From assembly GCA_041687695.1 (NCBI GenBank), contig JAWLBL010000035.1, forward strand, positions 15,693 through 79,692: a DNA stretch of 64,000 bases, given 5' to 3'. The stretch comes from Myxococcota bacterium. GTDB taxonomy: Bacteria; Myxococcota_A; UBA9042; PHBI01; JAWLBL01. The notes under the pieces are model-generated. The model was given only the letters and a program-made list of their open reading frames with translations. It did no database searches and was not told where the DNA came from. The translations under genes and the position numbers were made by a program. Below, in pieces: positions 1-11,581 of this stretch (position 1 is the first letter of the stretch; every line of letters starts with the position of its first letter).

Positions 1-3000
1 GTCGGGGCGGGCCTCGGCGAGGCGCTCGAAGGCGGCGTTGGCGAGGTCGGGCCGCTTGGCGTCCAGGTAGCTGTGGGCCAGGACCAGGTCGAGGACCTGC
101 GCCTCGAGGCCCTTGGCGGCCTTGCGGGCGCGCTCGATCACGGCGCGGTGGGGGGCGGCGCCTTCGCCACGGGCCAGGTAGGTGGCGACGGCGAGGCGGA
201 CCCGGGCGTCGTCGGCGGCCTCGACCGGCCACAGGTGCGCCACGGGGTCGGCGGACAGCGGGTTGGCCGGGTCGGGGTCGGCCACGTGCCCGCGCAACCA
301 GCCCAGCCAGCGCCGGGCCGCCGCGGGGCGCTTGCGGTCGAGCTGACGGACGGCCTCGGCGGCGAGCGGGCGCAGGTCGTCGTTGGTGGTCAGGACGCGC
401 GCCTGACCGTCCTCGCGCACGACGTAGACGACCAGACCGTCCGCGTCGTCGTCCTCGGAGTAGACGCGCCAGCCGGTGTCGGCGTCGCCGTCGACCTTCA
501 GCGTGAGGGAGCTGGCGACGAGGTCGCCCAGGGCCTGCATGCTGAGCGGGACGCTGGACAGACGGCCGGCGTGCACGGCCGCGAGCTTGCGGCGGCGCCC
601 GGCGCTGGCGGCGAAGACGCCGCTTTGCGACTTGGCGAGCAGCGGGCGCCAGGTGGCCTCGTCCGGGAAGGGCTCGAACAGGGAGGCGTAGAAGAGGCGC
701 GCGGCGTGCTCGGGCTCGGTGACCTTGCCGACCGTCGAGGGCAGCCAGCGGCGGGCGCTGCGCATCGTAGTGAGGAAGCTGTCGTCGCCGCCGCGGCCCA
801 GCTTCTGCTGGGCGTCGAGCAGCTGGGCGGCCTCGGTGAAGCGCCCAGCGGTGGCCAGCCAGAGGGCGGCGCTGCCCAGGGTGTTCTGCCGGTCCTGCGG
901 GTTGCCGGCGAGGCGTGTCGCGAGGCGGGTGGCCGCCTCGGCGCCGTCGGCGGCGGCGACCGCGGCGACGCGCAGGGGGAAGCGCTCGCTGACCGTGGGC
1001 AGGCTGCGCGCGATGGGCTCGACCTCAGCGGCGCGCCCCGCCATGAACAGCGTCTCGAGCCAGGCGGTCTGGTGTTCGGCCTCCTGGCCGAGCTCGGCCG
1101 CGCGCTTCCAGTGCGTGAGCGCGGTCTCGAGGTCCGTGCCGGGGCCCCAGCGGGTGCCGCTGGCGTCGTGCTCGTGCGCGACCGCGACGCGCACATGGGC
1201 CAGCGCGTCCTCGGGGTCGAGCTGGACGACCTTCAGGAAGGCCGCCATGGCGCCCGGCCGGTCCCAGCCGCGCTCGAGCCAGCGACCGACCAAGTCGTGC
1301 CCCAGGGTCCAGCCCAGCGCGCGCCAGGCGTCGGCGTCCTCGGGCCGCTTGGCGACCAGCGCCTTGGCCTGCTCGCGCGCGGCCTCGCCCAGGCCGTAGC
1401 GCATCATGGTCTCGATGAGGAAGTTGCGGCTGGGCGCCTCGCTGGCCGGCAGCGTGACGAGGCGCTCGAGCACGTCGACCGCCTCACGCACCCGGCCGGC
1501 CGCCTCGTGGAGGGCCGCCTCGTGGTCGAAGGTCATGACGGCCGCGTTGGCCTTGTCGAAGCCCTGGATGCCCGCCCACAGGGCGCGCGCCTCGGCCGGG
1601 GTCAGGCGGCGCTGGTTCAAGGTGAAGGCGATGGTCGCCGAGACGGCGCCGTCCGGCTCGAGGGCGTAGCGCTCGGTCAGGCGCGCGGCGGGGCCGACGT
1701 CCCAGTCGCGCGGCTCGGGGACCGGGCGCGCCTTGTACCCGGGGGGCGGGACGATGCGGTAGCGGATCTCGCTGACGAAGGGGTGCTCGACCTGCACGTC
1801 GTGGGTGCGCTTGGCCCAGGCCTGGTCGGCGCGCTCGGGGACGCGCGTGCCCAGCGGCGCCGCCTGCGGGTGGGTGAGGATCTCGGGCAGCCCTCGATAG
1901 ACCCGCAGGTGACGCAGGGCGACGCTGGCCTCCCTCTGCGAGGTCCAGGCGACGCCGGCGTCGGCCACCTCGAGCGTGAGCGTCATCGGATCCTGGACCT
2001 GCTTGGGGTCCGTGAAGCGCAGGTCGGTCAGGCGGACGGCGTCGTAGGTCTCCTTGGCGTAGGACTCGAGGTGCGCGCGGAGGCGCTCGGCGTTGGCGGT
2101 CGCGTACTGACCGCGCAGGCCCAGGGCCGGGACGCCGGTGTACTCCGAGGCCTCGACGACGGCGGCCGGGCCGTCGGGCGACAGGCGCACCTCGCGCGTC
2201 TCGATGATGCGGTTGGCCTGCGCGGCGGCGACCGGGGTCTGGATCAGGCCCTTGGTGGTCGGGGCGGCGACCAGGACGAGGCGGCCCTGGTCCGAGGCGG
2301 GCAGCTGGCCGGCGGCGGCGGCCTCCCAGGTCGGGTCGACCCAGAGCGGCTCGGGGCCGGGGACGAAGACGATGGCGTGGTCGAACTGGTCGAGGCCGGG
2401 CAGGTCGTCACGCACCTCGCGGCTGTCGCCGACCCGGATGAGCGTGACGTGGGCGTCGACGCCGACCGCGCGCAGCAGGCCCACCAGCAGGGTCGCCTTG
2501 TCCTTGCAGTCGCCGTAGCGGCGGGCCAGCGTCTCGGCCGGCTTGCGCGGGACGATGGCGGCCTCGCCGAACTCGAGGCCCGTGTAGCGCACCTTGTCCT
2601 GCACGAGGGCCAGCAGCCGCGCGACCTTCTCGTCGCGGGTCGCGGCGCCGGCCACGGCCTCGGCCGCCATGGCGTCGAGCGCGTGCCCCTCGAGCTGCGC
2701 CTCGACGATGGCCGTGTACTCGGCGGCCACGTCGGCCCAGCCCTTCACGGTCGAGTAGGCGACCCTCGGCCAGCGAACGCTGTCCCAGGGCGTGTTCGGC
2801 TCGAAGACGCGCTCGGCGGCGACCCCTCGCATCTCGAACGTGGTGACGCGCCGGCCGTCCACGGTGGCGGTCTTCGGCTTGAGCTTCAGCGCGTCGAGGA
2901 CGAAGCGCGGCTTGACCTTGGGGTCGGCGGCGACGACGAAGCGCATGACGCGCACCGGGTCCTGCGAGGCGAAGTAGAAGGCGCCGGTGGCGCCGGAGCG

Positions 3001-7320: not shown

Positions 7321-7336
7321 TGGCACGCCGCGTGCT
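7321..7336 (+). promoter_or_regulatory. sigma54 (-24/-12) promoter
   Basis: TGGCACGCCGCGTGCT, GG-N10-GC, ~65 bp upstream of ATG 7402. Confidence 0.7.
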
Positions 7337-7401
7337 AAGGTCATCGGGCGTGGGCCGGCGCCGTGGGAGGCGCCGCCGCGCCACCGCCCTCGGGAGGACC
7401 G

Positions 7402-8409
7402 ATGAACCGCCTGTGGAAGCTGCTCGCCCTCGCCGTGGTGACCTGCACGGCCCTGGCCGCCGCGCCTGCCGCGCACGCCGCCGAGGTCTGGGTCGTGCAC
7501 CGACTGGGAACGCAAGGCGTCGACGAGGCGACGGCCGCCACCTTCCGGGATCTGCTCATCGCCGAGCTGGGCGAGCGGGTGGCCGCCACCTTCGCGCAGG
7601 CCGACGCCGTGTGCGACGGCTCGGAGTGCGCGCGCGTCACGGCCGAGCAGCTGGGCGCGGACGTGGCGGTCTTCGGCACCGTGTCCGCCCTGGGCCGAAA
7701 GATCCTGGTCAACCTGTACGTCGTCGACGCTCACGACGGGTCGACCCTGTCGCGACACAAGATGGACGTGGACCGGGTCGAGGATCTGGACACCGTCGCG
7801 CTGCGCGTGGCCAAGGCCATCGCCGGCGGCCGGCACGTCTCCGAGACCGCCGAGCTGGGCGCCATCACCCATCGCGAGGTGCAGCCGGATCTGCGCCGCG
7901 AGGGCGCGCGCGGGCTGGGCCTGTACCTGGGCGGGGTCGTGCCGGTGTCCGAGGCCTTCCAGGGCGGCGGACCCGGCGTGCTCATCGACGGCAGCTACTG
8001 GTTCGAGACGACCGACTTCGCCATCGAGCCGCGCATCGGCCTGCGCTTCAACACCAACGGGCTCGACGACGCCTCCGACTGGATCGAGATCCCGGTCGAC
8101 GTCGGGGTCTACTACATCCTGGGGCGTGGCGACCTCGCGCCCTTCTTCGGGGGCGGCGCCGGGCTGCGCTTCGCCTGGGCGGACGAGTCGCGCACGCTCA
8201 CCCAGGGCGACGTCATCAAGACCACCCACACGGCCGAGATCGAAGACGGCGGCGTCGGGTTCGGCGTCTTCGGCCGCGCTGGCCTGATGCTGCTGCGCAC
8301 CTACGCGATGCGTATGTCCATCAGCGTCGAGTACAACGCGATCCTCCGTGACTTCCTGGATCGCGGCGTGCCCCAGCAGCTCAACTTCGCCCTCGGCGTC
8401 TACTTCTGA
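7402..8409 (+). CDS. secreted protein with putative C-terminal outer-membrane beta-barrel
   Basis: Signal peptide MNRLWKLLALAVV...AHA, alternating aromatic beta-strands, terminal LGVYF; RBS GGAGGA. Confidence 0.7.
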   Translation: MNRLWKLLALAVVTCTALAAAPAAHAAEVWVVHRLGTQGVDEATAATFRDLLIAELGERVAATFAQADAVCDGSECARVTAEQLGADVAVFGTVSALGRKILVNLYVVDAHDGSTLSRHKMDVDRVEDLDTVALRVAKAIAGGRHVSETAELGAITHREVQPDLRREGARGLGLYLGGVVPVSEAFQGGGPGVLIDGSYWFETTDFAIEPRIGLRFNTNGLDDASDWIEIPVDVGVYYILGRGDLAPFFGGGAGLRFAWADESRTLTQGDVIKTTHTAEIEDGGVGFGVFGRAGLMLLRTYAMRMSISVEYNAILRDFLDRGVPQQLNFALGVYF

Positions 8410-8960: not shown

Positions 8961-9377
8961 CTACTGCTGCGGGTTGAAGCCGCGGATCTTTTCGACCAGC
9001 GCCTGGACGACCGCGGGCTTGTCCTTCAGATCCGGGTTGCCCGGCATCAGCGGCGACAGGCCGACCGCCGCGCCGCCCTCGACGATGACCTTGCGCAGGT
9101 GATCGTCGGTCACGCTCTTCTGCCACTCGGCGTCCGCGTACGAGCGCGGCTTCGGGTCGAGGCTGGCCGCGGCCGGGCCGTCGCCCTTGCCCGACTCGCC
9201 GTGGCAGCTGACGCACAGCGTGGTCCACTTCTGGTCGGCCTCGGCCTTGGCCTTGGCGTCGACCTGAACGGCCGCCTGCTGCCCACCGGCGGCCCCGCCG
9301 CCGTCGTCCTTCTTGCACGCGCCCAGCCCGAAGGTCAGCGCCAGCCCCAGCCCGAGCGTCATCATCGCCTTGCGCAT
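8961..9377 (-). CDS. monoheme c-type cytochrome lipoprotein
   Basis: Lipobox LGAC, heme motif CVSCH, GDGPAAASLDPKP, distal Met (LMP). Confidence 0.92.
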   Translation of the reverse strand: MRKAMMTLGLGLALTFGLGACKKDDGGGAAGGQQAAVQVDAKAKAEADQKWTTLCVSCHGESGKGDGPAAASLDPKPRSYADAEWQKSVTDDHLRKVIVEGGAAVGLSPLMPGNPDLKDKPAVVQALVEKIRGFNPQQ

Positions 9378-9654
9378 CGCGTCCTCCTGAGTCCAAACCG
9401 TCGCGATCGAGTGGCGCCAGTTTCACCATGCGCCGCCACATCGCAAGCTCTTGGACGCAGCGCAGGGCATTTTGACGCGCCTGGCGTCATGCCCGCCGCG
9501 GCGGCTCCGCGTACGCAGTGTCGAAAGGCACCGGACCTCGCCATCATGGCCCCGGCTCGCCAGGTCACCTGTCGCGGAGTGGTGTCGGGGAGTCACCCTC
9601 CTGCGTGGGCCCTACCGGGATGTGGGTCGGAGCGCGATGCCTCTCGCGGGAACG

Positions 9655-9772
9655 ACCGCCGCGCGGCGAAAAAGGGGGGCGCCGCGCGGCGTGCAGACGG
9701 CTCGGGGGAGAGGCCGCCTGCGCTCGGAACATGTTGTCAGGCGGCCGGGAGGCGCCGCCGTCCAGGGAGTGG
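9655..9772 (-). ncRNA. candidate sigma54-dependent small RNA with three C/U-rich-loop hairpins (Pxr-like architecture)
   Basis: Directly downstream of a sigma54 promoter; minus-strand hairpins GGCGGC-GCCUCCCG-GCCGCC, GCAGGCGGC-CUCUCCCCCGA-GCCGUCUGC, GCCGCGCGGCG-CCCCCCUUUUU-CGCCGCGCGGC; no credible ORF. Confidence 0.55.
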
Positions 9773-9782
9773 TCCCAGGTTT

Positions 9783-9799
9783 AGCACGGGCCGTGCCAA
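9783..9799 (-). promoter_or_regulatory. sigma54 (-24/-12) promoter
   Basis: Minus strand TTGGCACGGCCCGTGCT, GG-N10-GC. Confidence 0.75.
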
Positions 9800-10127
9800 A
9801 CGGCTCGAGGCCGGCGATGACCCGCACGGCAGGCCGCTCTCGTCGGATCGGGACGCCTCCCCGGCCGCCGCTCCCTCACCTCCACGCCTCGACTGACCGG
9901 GAAAGTTTTCACCACCGCCTGCCGCGCCCAGTGACGCGACCGTCACGCCAGCGTCGCGCCCGCCCGCACGGCCGCTCGCGCCACGACACGCTGCGTCATC
10001 TTCCCCACCCTGCTGGGGACGCCGTCCATGGCGCCCACAACCTCCCGGCCCCGCCCTCGCTGTGGTGTGATCGTTCCGCGCGCCCGCGCAAGCCCCCTCC
10101 CCTCCCTCCCCCTGCCAGGATCACGCC

Positions 10128-10457
10128 ATGTCCCTCTCCCACGCCCGGCGCTCGCTCGTCTCCCTCGCCGCCGTCCTCGCCCTGTTCGCCTGCGGCGGCA
10201 ACGCCTCCGTCCCGCCCGAGGGCGCCCCGCCCCCTCCCGAGTCCACCGTCGTCGTCGGCGACGACCCCTGCCAGACCGACGCCGACTGCTTCCCCGCCGA
10301 GTGCTGCCACGCCTCGATGTGCGTGTCGGGCGACAACACCCCCATGTGCGAGAACATCGCCTGCACGATGGAGTGCCGCCCGGGCACCATCGACTGCGGT
10401 GGCGGCTGCCTCTGCGTCGAAGGGCGCTGCGCCGCGCGCCTGATGCATCGCTTCTGA
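10128..10457 (+). CDS. small cysteine-rich lipoprotein
   Basis: Lipobox LFAC then CQTDADCFPAECCH...CTMEC...CLCVEGRC. Confidence 0.8.
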   Translation: MSLSHARRSLVSLAAVLALFACGGNASVPPEGAPPPPESTVVVGDDPCQTDADCFPAECCHASMCVSGDNTPMCENIACTMECRPGTIDCGGGCLCVEGRCAARLMHRF

Positions 10458-10576: not shown

Positions 10577-10592
10577 TGGCACGCGGGTTGCT
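10577..10592 (+). promoter_or_regulatory. sigma54 (-24/-12) promoter of the five-gene operon
   Basis: TGGCACGCGGGTTGCT, near-consensus, ~35 bp upstream of ATG 10628. Confidence 0.8.
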
Positions 10593-10627
10593 CAAACCCT
10601 GCCGCGGACACGTGCTGGAGACCACAC

Positions 10628-11581
10628 ATGGGCGACGACGGGATCTGGGTCATCATCCTCGCGGGCGGCGAAGGCCGCCGGGTGCAGGCGGTCACGCGTC
10701 GGCCCGACGGCGCCTCGGTCCCCAAGCAGTTCTGGCGCCTGCCCGAGGGCCCCACCCCCCTCGAGCTCGCGCTCGATCGCGCCTCGGATCTGGCCTCGCC
10801 CGAGCGCACCATGGTCGTGGTCTCGGCCGACCACGAGCCGCTGTGGGCCCCGGCGCTCGACAGCCACCCCCGCGACAACGTCGTCGTCCAGCCAGCGCGT
10901 CGCGGCACCGCCCCGGCCCTCCTGCTGGCCCTCGTGCGCGTCCTCGAGCGCGATCCCGGCGCCACCGTCGTCGTCATGCCCAGCGACCACTTCGTCGAAG
11001 ACGAGGGCGCCCTGCACTGGGCCATGCTCAACGCCGTCGGCTCGGCGCGCCACCGCTCGGGCCCCATCGTGCTGCTCGGCATGACCCCGACCCACGCCGA
11101 CACCAGCTACGGCTGGGTGGTCCCCGAGCGCGGCGGCGACGGCCTCGCCCACGGCGTCGCCCGCTTCGTCGAAAAGCCCGCCCCCGCGCAGGCCGCCGCC
11201 CTCCACGCCGAGGGCGCCCTGTGGAGCAGCTTCATCCTGGCGGGCGCCGCCACGGCCCTGCTGCGTCTGCTCTCCGACACGCTGCCCGAGCTGGTCGCGG
11301 CCCTCTGGCACTGCGACGGACGCCGCCGCTCCCGCGATCTCGAGAGCCTCGAGGTCATCTACGAGCGCCTCCCCGCTCACGACCTGTCGGCCGACGTCCT
11401 GCAGACCGTCCCCGAGCGCCTCCGCGTCTTGCCCGTCCCGCCCTGCGGCTGGACCGACCTCGGCACTCCCGACGGCCTCACCGGCCGCCGCCCCGTCGCC
11501 GTCATCGCCCCGCGCCCCCCCGCGCGCCCCAGCACCTCCCTCCTGTCCACCCTCCTCGCGGCCGTGGGGCTCACCCGATGA
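10628..11581 (+). CDS. sugar-phosphate nucleotidyltransferase (mannose-1-phosphate guanylyltransferase-like, no cupin domain)
   Basis: ILAGGEGRR, PKQF, RRGTAPA, PSDH, FVEKP, WTDLGTP. Confidence 0.85.
   Translation: MGDDGIWVIILAGGEGRRVQAVTRRPDGASVPKQFWRLPEGPTPLELALDRASDLASPERTMVVVSADHEPLWAPALDSHPRDNVVVQPARRGTAPALLLALVRVLERDPGATVVVMPSDHFVEDEGALHWAMLNAVGSARHRSGPIVLLGMTPTHADTSYGWVVPERGGDGLAHGVARFVEKPAPAQAAALHAEGALWSSFILAGAATALLRLLSDTLPELVAALWHCDGRRRSRDLESLEVIYERLPAHDLSADVLQTVPERLRVLPVPPCGWTDLGTPDGLTGRRPVAVIAPRPPARPSTSLLSTLLAAVGLTR

Follow-up and report, generated by a model that had tools for sequence, protein, structure and literature searches.

Predicted sigma54-promoted RNAs with C-rich loops occur as a five-copy family in a Myxococcota genome

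This locus raises the question of whether the gap upstream of a cytochrome c gene encodes an RNA of its own, and what such an RNA might act on. The window, meaning the whole stretch of 64,000 nucleotides that was analysed, lies on contig C35 of a 7.97 Mb, 73% GC, 99%-complete genome. A sequence-only reading of the window had described a 750 bp gap holding a minus-strand GG-N10-GC promoter and three hairpins, and had proposed a trans-acting RNA of about 115 nt ending at 9655 or, alternatively, a structured leader of the cytochrome c gene. The gap has the size described, extending from the cytochrome c start at 9377 to the next open reading frame at 10128. The features discussed below are listed in Table 1.

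The promoter was found where the reading had placed it. The minus strand carries the word TGGCAC-N6-TGCTA, with the -24 box at 9798-9793 and the -12 box at 9786-9782. The correctly spaced pattern occurs at 86 sites in the genome, whereas seven wrong spacings yield 6-36. A genome search identified rpoN in the host, together with 37 matches to sigma54-activator domains, about 30 of which are strong. Two further clean sigma54 promoter words are present in the window, both on the plus strand: one at 7321-7337, upstream of an open reading frame starting near 7402, and one at 10577-10593, upstream of a mannose-1-phosphate guanylyltransferase-like gene at 10628.

The predicted RNA belongs to a family. 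When all sigma54 sites were listed, others showed the same words downstream, and the copies were first spotted in this way. From the promoter onwards, five loci can be aligned for about 300 bases: C35-25490 (the window copy), C7+257605 and C7+261668 (the copies of contig C7 are called C7a and C7b), C12-52978 and C32-65161. An nhmmer profile, built from these same five sequences, recovered the five copies at E values of 5e-80 to 7e-55, the next match having E = 5. Pairwise identity among the copies is 55-88%, the window copy being the most diverged, and TGGCACGG and the TGC of the promoter are invariant in all five. C7a and C32 are the most similar pair and also share about 180 bp of DNA upstream of the promoter; tandem CACGGC-type repeats lie just upstream of both C32 and C7a (loci L031 7290-7483 and L029 7383-7440, respectively). 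These alignments point to a real, uncatalogued family of predicted RNAs of about 280 nt, each behind a sigma54 promoter, with four C-rich loops and five copies in one genome.

The alignment also revises the extent of the RNA. Homology with the four paralogues extends to about 9500, so the three hairpins of the sequence-only reading would make up only the 5' 40% of the RNA. The third hairpin is internal, and neither the length of about 115 nt nor the end at 9655 was retained. No intrinsic terminator was found in 9300-10200, and no U-tract terminator follows any of the five copies.

The upstream DNA shares little among the copies apart from composition. The AT-rich patch in Table 1 has 7-8 A/T per 12 positions in all five copies, compared with a mean of 5.5 over the 86 sigma54 sites, which weakly suggests a possible site for an activator or a bending protein. 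No upstream 8-mer common to at least four copies was found. A GTGAC-N6-GTCAC palindrome lies upstream of the promoter (9931-9946) and a TGACGC-N5-GCGTCA palindrome lies between the RNA and the cytochrome c gene (9473-9489); both are possible regulator sites. GCGTCAC occurs three times upstream of copy C7b.

Table 1. Features of the window copy and of the candidate target (window positions unless a contig is given)
Feature	Position	Strand	Remarks
sigma54 promoter	9782..9798	-	Consensus match; start at about 9772 inferred from consensus spacing
AT-rich patch	9901..9910	-	About 105-110 bp upstream of promoter; similar place in all five copies
Whole predicted RNA	9500..9772	-	Some 270-280 nt; approximate 3' end without a U-tract terminator
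Arm 1 hairpin	9740..9759	-	Loop GCCUCCCG at 9753-9746
UGACA(A) motif, conserved	9734..9739	-	Closes arm 1 against 5' GUCG in the other four copies
Closing stem, 5' strand (probable)	9725..9730	-	GUUCCG pairs with CGGAGC at 9509-9504
Arm 2 hairpin	9693..9721	-	Loop CUCUCCCCCGA at 9712-9702; strand-specific G-U pair
Arm 3 hairpin	9657..9691	-	12-bp perfect stem, loop CCCCCCUUUUU at 9679-9669; internal, not a terminator
Arm 4, long rod	9522..9646	-	Apical loop ACUCCCCGA at 9593-9585
Closing stem, 3' strand (probable)	9504..9509	-	Placed as for the 5' strand
Cytochrome c gene	8961..9377	-	Downstream neighbour, outside the RNA
ftsZ start region, host	C13:1908-1930		Plus 15 relatives; loci L066-L081

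Every copy has the same predicted anatomy: arm 1 with a CUCCC-containing loop, a conserved UGACA, arms 2 and 3 with C-rich loops and the long arm 4, with the apical loop A(A/CU)CCCCGA. The three hairpins described previously correspond to arms 1 to 3 and carry exactly the loops named, and the G-U pair at position 5 of the second stem (GCAGGCGG/CCGUCUGC) is directly legible in the sequence. The proposed loop core, an anti-Shine-Dalgarno CCUCC, has to be replaced; the conserved core is CCCC(GA). Arm 4 is the most conserved part, with 81% column identity, and its C-rich loop is the best conserved of the four. In the window copy, the 5' GUCG partner of UGACA(A) is missing, arm 1 is broken up in the minimum-energy fold when 274 nt are used, and arm 1 and the outer helices of arm 4 shift with the sequence ends chosen for folding. 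Its 6-bp closing stem is probable and was placed by position, not by folding. The counterpart in C7a is a 13-bp stem (CCAGACCUCGCGA/UCGCGAGGUCUGG) with 100% complementarity, and a long stem encloses arms 2-4 in C7a and C32.

The structure appears to have been under selection, most clearly in arm 4. There, 97.1% of 209 cells are paired, as against 31-48% in slid controls, and 13 of 42 pairs are altered on both sides, a level reached in none of 500 shuffles; the covariation rests on five related sequences from one genome, with the structure predicted from them on the minus strand. By these comparisons arm 4 is maintained by selection on pairing, and the covariation among homologues that the sequence-only reading had called for was obtained among the paralogues. 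Variant cells in arm 4 include six G-U and no A-C, which favours a minus-strand RNA. A 121-nt segment folds better than expected by chance, at z = -2.78 (3 of 200 shuffles were equally good). For the entire RNA the z-scores, from -1.2 to -3.5, are modest, and the other strand gives folds that are equally good or better.

Base composition is also strand-specific. Each copy has 3-9 CCCC runs and 0-1 GGGG runs on the RNA strand, and the 5-kb flanks are unskewed. CCCCGA occurs 2-4 times and C-rich segments 7-9 times per copy, the motif being found in loops, linkers and bulges. Four C-rich hairpin loops were found at 4 of 82 scorable sigma54 sites, all four of them family members, while the fifth copy has three; none of 300 random windows had four, by a criterion chosen after the element had been seen. 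The predicted accessible 7-mers are mainly the C-rich loops in all five copies.

The surroundings of the copies bear on whether the RNA is a gene of its own. The neighbours differ at each copy (cytochrome c; a methyltransferase; TetR and an unnamed gene; malic enzyme and acetyl-CoA hydrolase; ruvB), and the copies have no neighbour family in common. The closest sequence clusters of the neighbouring cytochrome c are mostly from Myxococcota. One alternative is that the element is a structured 395-nt 5' leader of the cytochrome c mRNA, acting in cis. It lies on the same strand as that gene, no terminator was found to separate it from the start at 9377, the gap showed no sigma70-like promoter, and a same-strand gene also lies downstream of copy C7a. 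A convergent gene follows C7b, C12 and C32, however, which shows that the family is not a cytochrome c leader, and the downstream genes are unrelated. In addition, 45 of 65 intergenic sigma54 sites are within 101 bp of the next same-strand start, whereas the window site is 421 bp away. The leader alternative of the sequence-only reading therefore fails for the family and is very improbable for the window copy. Read-through from the window copy into cytochrome c may occur, as the gap showed neither a terminator nor a sigma70-like promoter. It is even less probable that the element encodes a short peptide starting in arm 4. A possible start codon (AUG, GUG or CUG) does occupy the same aligned position in all five copies, beside a GGAG-like word. 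Against this, the start is buried in the covarying stem and almost abuts the GGAG word, and the frames diverge at once or soon (57, 71 and more than 130 codons, with no common stop). No conserved reading frame was found among the five copies; this, with convergent neighbours at three of the five, is what would be expected of a free-standing non-coding gene.

The family was next compared with catalogued RNAs. Among 4227 Rfam families, sX13 and 6C included, none matched the window or three paralogue loci at the gathering score, and the gap gave only three chance-level matches (E 2-8). The Pxr model (RF01812), suggested by the sequence-only reading, had no match at E <= 10 in 9300-10200; genome-wide its best score was 23.6 bits against an 80-bit threshold, at none of the five copies. 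It also had no match in 80 genomes of the phylum, a set with no positive-control genome. Weak matches to the Pxr model at C19:102023-102120 and C11:86913-87005 were rejected as related GC-rich palindromes between convergent genes, the C11 one without a promoter-like site; they are probably REP-like repeats or terminators.

Homologues in other genomes were sought in several ways. Searches with blastn returned short weak matches only (the gap against 40 relatives) and one 34-nt match with E of 1e-3 (copy C32 against 17 other genomes of the order). The core pattern was found in none of 300 genomes of the phylum and the arm-4 model in none of 17 genomes of the order. A sequence-only model run on 97 loci found the window alone. 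Sites downstream of ruvB in five genomes and of maeB (two of five) held no element, and there were no matches in viral contigs or in phage and plasmid collections. Looser patterns produced candidates that were rejected. A promoter followed by TCCCCGA gave 19 matches in relatives, all inspected, and a promoter followed by CTCCCCA gave four in five genomes; none had the architecture. A double-loop pattern gave 36 matches in relatives against 42 in a reversed control, and none of the 27 inspected was convincing. A looser pattern gave six metagenome and four genome matches, none scoring on the family model. In one metagenome locus (L050, about 560-760, minus strand), which likewise has no score on the family model, several hairpins carry loops of 5-6 C, which we take to resemble the actinobacterial 6C RNA. 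Because the host is the sole member of its taxonomic family among the genomes compared and several relatives are incomplete, the element is best described as not found, rather than absent, in relatives; so far, the RNA family appears confined to the host lineage. None of the papers returned by the literature searches describes this five-copy RNA family.

Several described RNAs share some of these properties. According to the parts of the literature available, Pxr has a predicted sigma54 promoter (PMC5684412, PMC5568312). Pxr resembles the family in this promoter (by sequence), in its myxobacterial setting and in its C-rich first loop, which the Rfam consensus gives as UCCCCCCA. However, Pxr has 109 positions, three stem-loops and a U tail, whereas the predicted RNAs of the family are about 280 nt long, have four arms and lack a U tract. 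Pxr lies immediately downstream of the two-component genes pxrR/pxrK, while none of the five copies adjoins an activator or kinase gene, and the Pxr paralogues known in Cystobacter are in tandem, unlike the dispersed copies here. By Rfam score, size and gene context, the predicted family is not Pxr. The 6C RNA is described as pairing its C-rich loops with G-rich ribosome-binding sites without a chaperone; it acts through dnaB and panD, and its overexpression elongates cells (PMC6486639, in part). It differs in being smaller and in belonging to another phylum, Actinobacteria. The sX13 RNA of Xanthomonas is 115 nt long and Hfq-independent, with three arms, 4C/5C apical loops and G-rich motifs near target starts; pairing of C-loops with G-rich ribosome-binding sites was proposed, and the available part of that paper does not describe it as a multi-copy or sigma54 RNA (PMC3771888). 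NrsZ of Pseudomonas is RpoN-dependent, with repeated stem-loops carrying one motif and predicted pairing near the ribosome-binding site; its loop motif is ACAGGCAG, and in contrast to the family it activates its target, lies beside ntrC and is processed to short forms, as described in the text available (PMC4253122). The same text gives CrcZ an RpoN promoter (PMC4253122). The family has predicted stable stems with loops of at least four C, as in sX13 and 6C.

Our preferred reading is a free-standing RNA of about 280 nt, driven by sigma54 and independent of a chaperone, whose CCCC loops would pair with GGGGAG-type ribosome-binding sites; on the sequence evidence we consider this somewhat probable. 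An enhancer-binding activator, once switched on, would lead sigma54 polymerase to transcribe the RNA from the five dispersed paralogues, and the RNA would fold into four arms, each exposing a CCCC-containing loop. Independently of Hfq, these loops would pair with a minority of mRNAs, those having a GGGGAG ribosome-binding site, and translation would change, most likely downward. The trans-acting role proposed by the sequence-only reading, a sigma54 RNA with C-rich loops directed at G-rich ribosome-binding sites, gains from the paralogues, the covariation and the predicted loop accessibility, and loses its size and number of arms, which become about 280 nt and four. Neither Hfq nor CsrA had a match in the 99%-complete genome.

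The proposed targets are a minority class. Of 5675 predicted starts, 161 have GGGGAG within 20 nt, compared with 28 in a control window, and 1156 have GGAGG; TCGGGGAG is near only 8 predicted starts in the host genome. In an accessibility-weighted pairing scan of 5671 genes, most of the top matches lay at -11 to -18, a clustering that is partly circular because a Shine-Dalgarno score had entered into the choice of start codons. Many of the best-ranked matches are unnamed, and the predicted targets are of mixed function. Of 14 candidates checked, 9 could be assigned to a Pfam family; these 9 include RNase J, primase, an HTH_25 protein, a kinase and a sigma54 response regulator. The gene for a sigma54 response regulator at C7:73313-74683 (minus strand) has the ribosome-binding site TGGGGAGG, complementary to the CUCCCCA loops, and is a candidate feedback target or activator. 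The complementarity, like the promoter, the paralogy, the conserved structure and the predicted exposure of the loops, is shown by the sequence analysis. Transcription, pairing in the cell, the direction of regulation and the identity of the targets are what we infer, ftsZ and ftsA being the best target leads.

In the pairing scan, ftsZ ranked 16 and ftsA 44 of 5671 genes; one small open reading frame of the cluster ranked 273, and the other cluster genes ranked beyond 2000. The ftsZ site has a perfect match of 8-11 nt to all five RNAs, which for the window copy is 9 nt through the arm-4 loop. In the 16 of 18 genomes of the order in which ftsZ was located, the site has GGGGAG in 15, YGGGGAG in 13 and TCGGGGAG in 10, occurrences that are not independent events because these genomes are kin. 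At other genes of the cluster, GGGGAG was found for ftsA in 8 of 16 genomes, mraY in 7 of 14 and murE in 1 of 11, and for six others in none. Selection for a strong Shine-Dalgarno sequence was considered as the cause, and comparison with ribosomal-protein genes did not support it as the explanation: across 29 genes of ribosomal-protein operons in up to 15 genomes, GGGGAG was present at 10 of 393 sites, YGGGGAG at 4 of 393 and TCGGGGAG at 0 of 393. The ftsZ site has two variants, UCGGGGAG and UGGGGAG, which are the counterparts of the loop types CUCCCCGA and CUCCCCA, and three genomes have the site CCUGGGGAGG, for which CUCCCCAG loops would be the compensatory counterpart. Three observations weigh against the ftsZ lead. 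Matches to TCGGGGAG plus ATG number 17-39 per relative. No such RNA was found in the relatives that keep the ftsZ site. In 11 of 16 genomes most of the site is predicted to be base-paired with other parts of the ftsZ mRNA, so cis structure could explain its conservation.

DicF of Escherichia coli is a prophage-encoded, Hfq-dependent RNA. It represses ftsZ translation and so provides a precedent for a small RNA acting on ftsZ, according to the part of the source available (PMC11584013). If the paired ftsZ site were targeted here, the RNA could open it, as the available text proposes for NrsZ on rhlA (PMC4253122). A rather speculative extension, which we think less likely than the general reading, is that the five RNAs form a sigma54-switched brake or switch on cell division, with the CUCCCCGA and CUCCCCA loops pairing with the ribosome-binding site of ftsZ and, more weakly, with that of ftsA. 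If it were true, relatives would carry still-undetected C-loop RNAs, given the order-wide (U/C)GGGGAG site at ftsZ, and a testable class of direct Pxr targets would be suggested. In the main text available for the Pxr transcriptome paper, direct targets are uncharacterised and ftsZ is absent; its Table S6 may bear on the matter (PMC11928866). Whatever the role of the RNAs, the conservation of the ftsZ site across the order calls for an explanation of its own.

Two other readings of the family take the repeated C-rich motif or the dispersed copies as the starting point. Some RNAs act as protein sponges: CsrB/RsmZ for CsrA, and CrcZ, itself sigma54-dependent, for Hfq-Crc. CrcZ/CrcY and CsrB/RsmZ are long and multi-copy, with a repeated single-stranded motif, A-rich or GGA. 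The RNAs described here could likewise sequester a C-rich-RNA-binding protein through the repeated CCCC(GA) motif, a reading that we regard as unlikely though worth weighing. The recurrence of the motif in loops, linkers and bulges fits it, the length, multi-copy state and sigma54 control presumably resemble those of CrcZ-type sponges, and a 280-nt multi-arm body is larger than base-pairing requires and would suit a protein-binding RNA just as well. Five RRM proteins and a KhpA-type KH protein are encoded in the genome. However, the repeat is C-rich rather than GGA or A-rich, the known partners Hfq and CsrA were not found in the genome, any binding partner is hypothetical, and the loops exactly complement a real class of ribosome-binding sites, of which the ftsZ site is conserved. 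It is more improbable still that the family is a repetitive DNA element or a non-autonomous mobile one, with hairpins that function at the DNA level and a promoter that is carried along. The copies are dispersed in unrelated places and restricted to one lineage, both strands fold, and C7a and C32 share their upstream DNA and flanking tandem repeats. Yet there are only five copies, with identity down to 55%, no terminal inverted repeats in common and no transposase or nuclease among 15 neighbouring proteins, and a MITE- or REP-type repeat was rejected for this combination. Phage and plasmid collections gave no match, the invariant promoter stands at a fixed distance, the C-rich loops are on one strand, and arm 4 varies by G-U and not by A-C.

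The preferred reading, a predicted sigma54-driven RNA that pairs with ribosome-binding sites, is of interest for several reasons. Pxr is the only myxobacterial small RNA found to have been studied in depth in the literature searched, and its direct targets are uncharacterised. The present family offers clear internal evidence of structural selection, and the search of its genome yielded neither Hfq nor CsrA. Its predicted RNAs are over twice as large as known C-loop small RNAs, and it is present as five diverged copies behind sigma54 promoters. The question it poses is whether C-rich loops single out GGGGAG-type ribosome-binding sites, that of ftsZ in particular.

Other loci came to light during these searches. 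On contig C9 of the host, an intergenic sigma54 site at 79380 (minus strand) is followed by several hairpins with C/U-rich loops (about 79056-79356); the sequence is not alignable to the family and is a candidate for a second small RNA in the host. Near-identical loci at contig ends (C43:42769, C43:132 and C44:230) share a sigma54-like word, a hairpin and the same open reading frame start, and are probably copies of a multi-copy mobile element. The promoter-plus-two-loops pattern matched 1 of 70 genomes of the class, and this match was set aside as a candidate short small RNA that does not belong to the family. At this locus, L057 (1501-1610; G038, contig C61), a sigma54 promoter is followed by about 80 nt with CCCUCCC and a strong hairpin that has a U tract.
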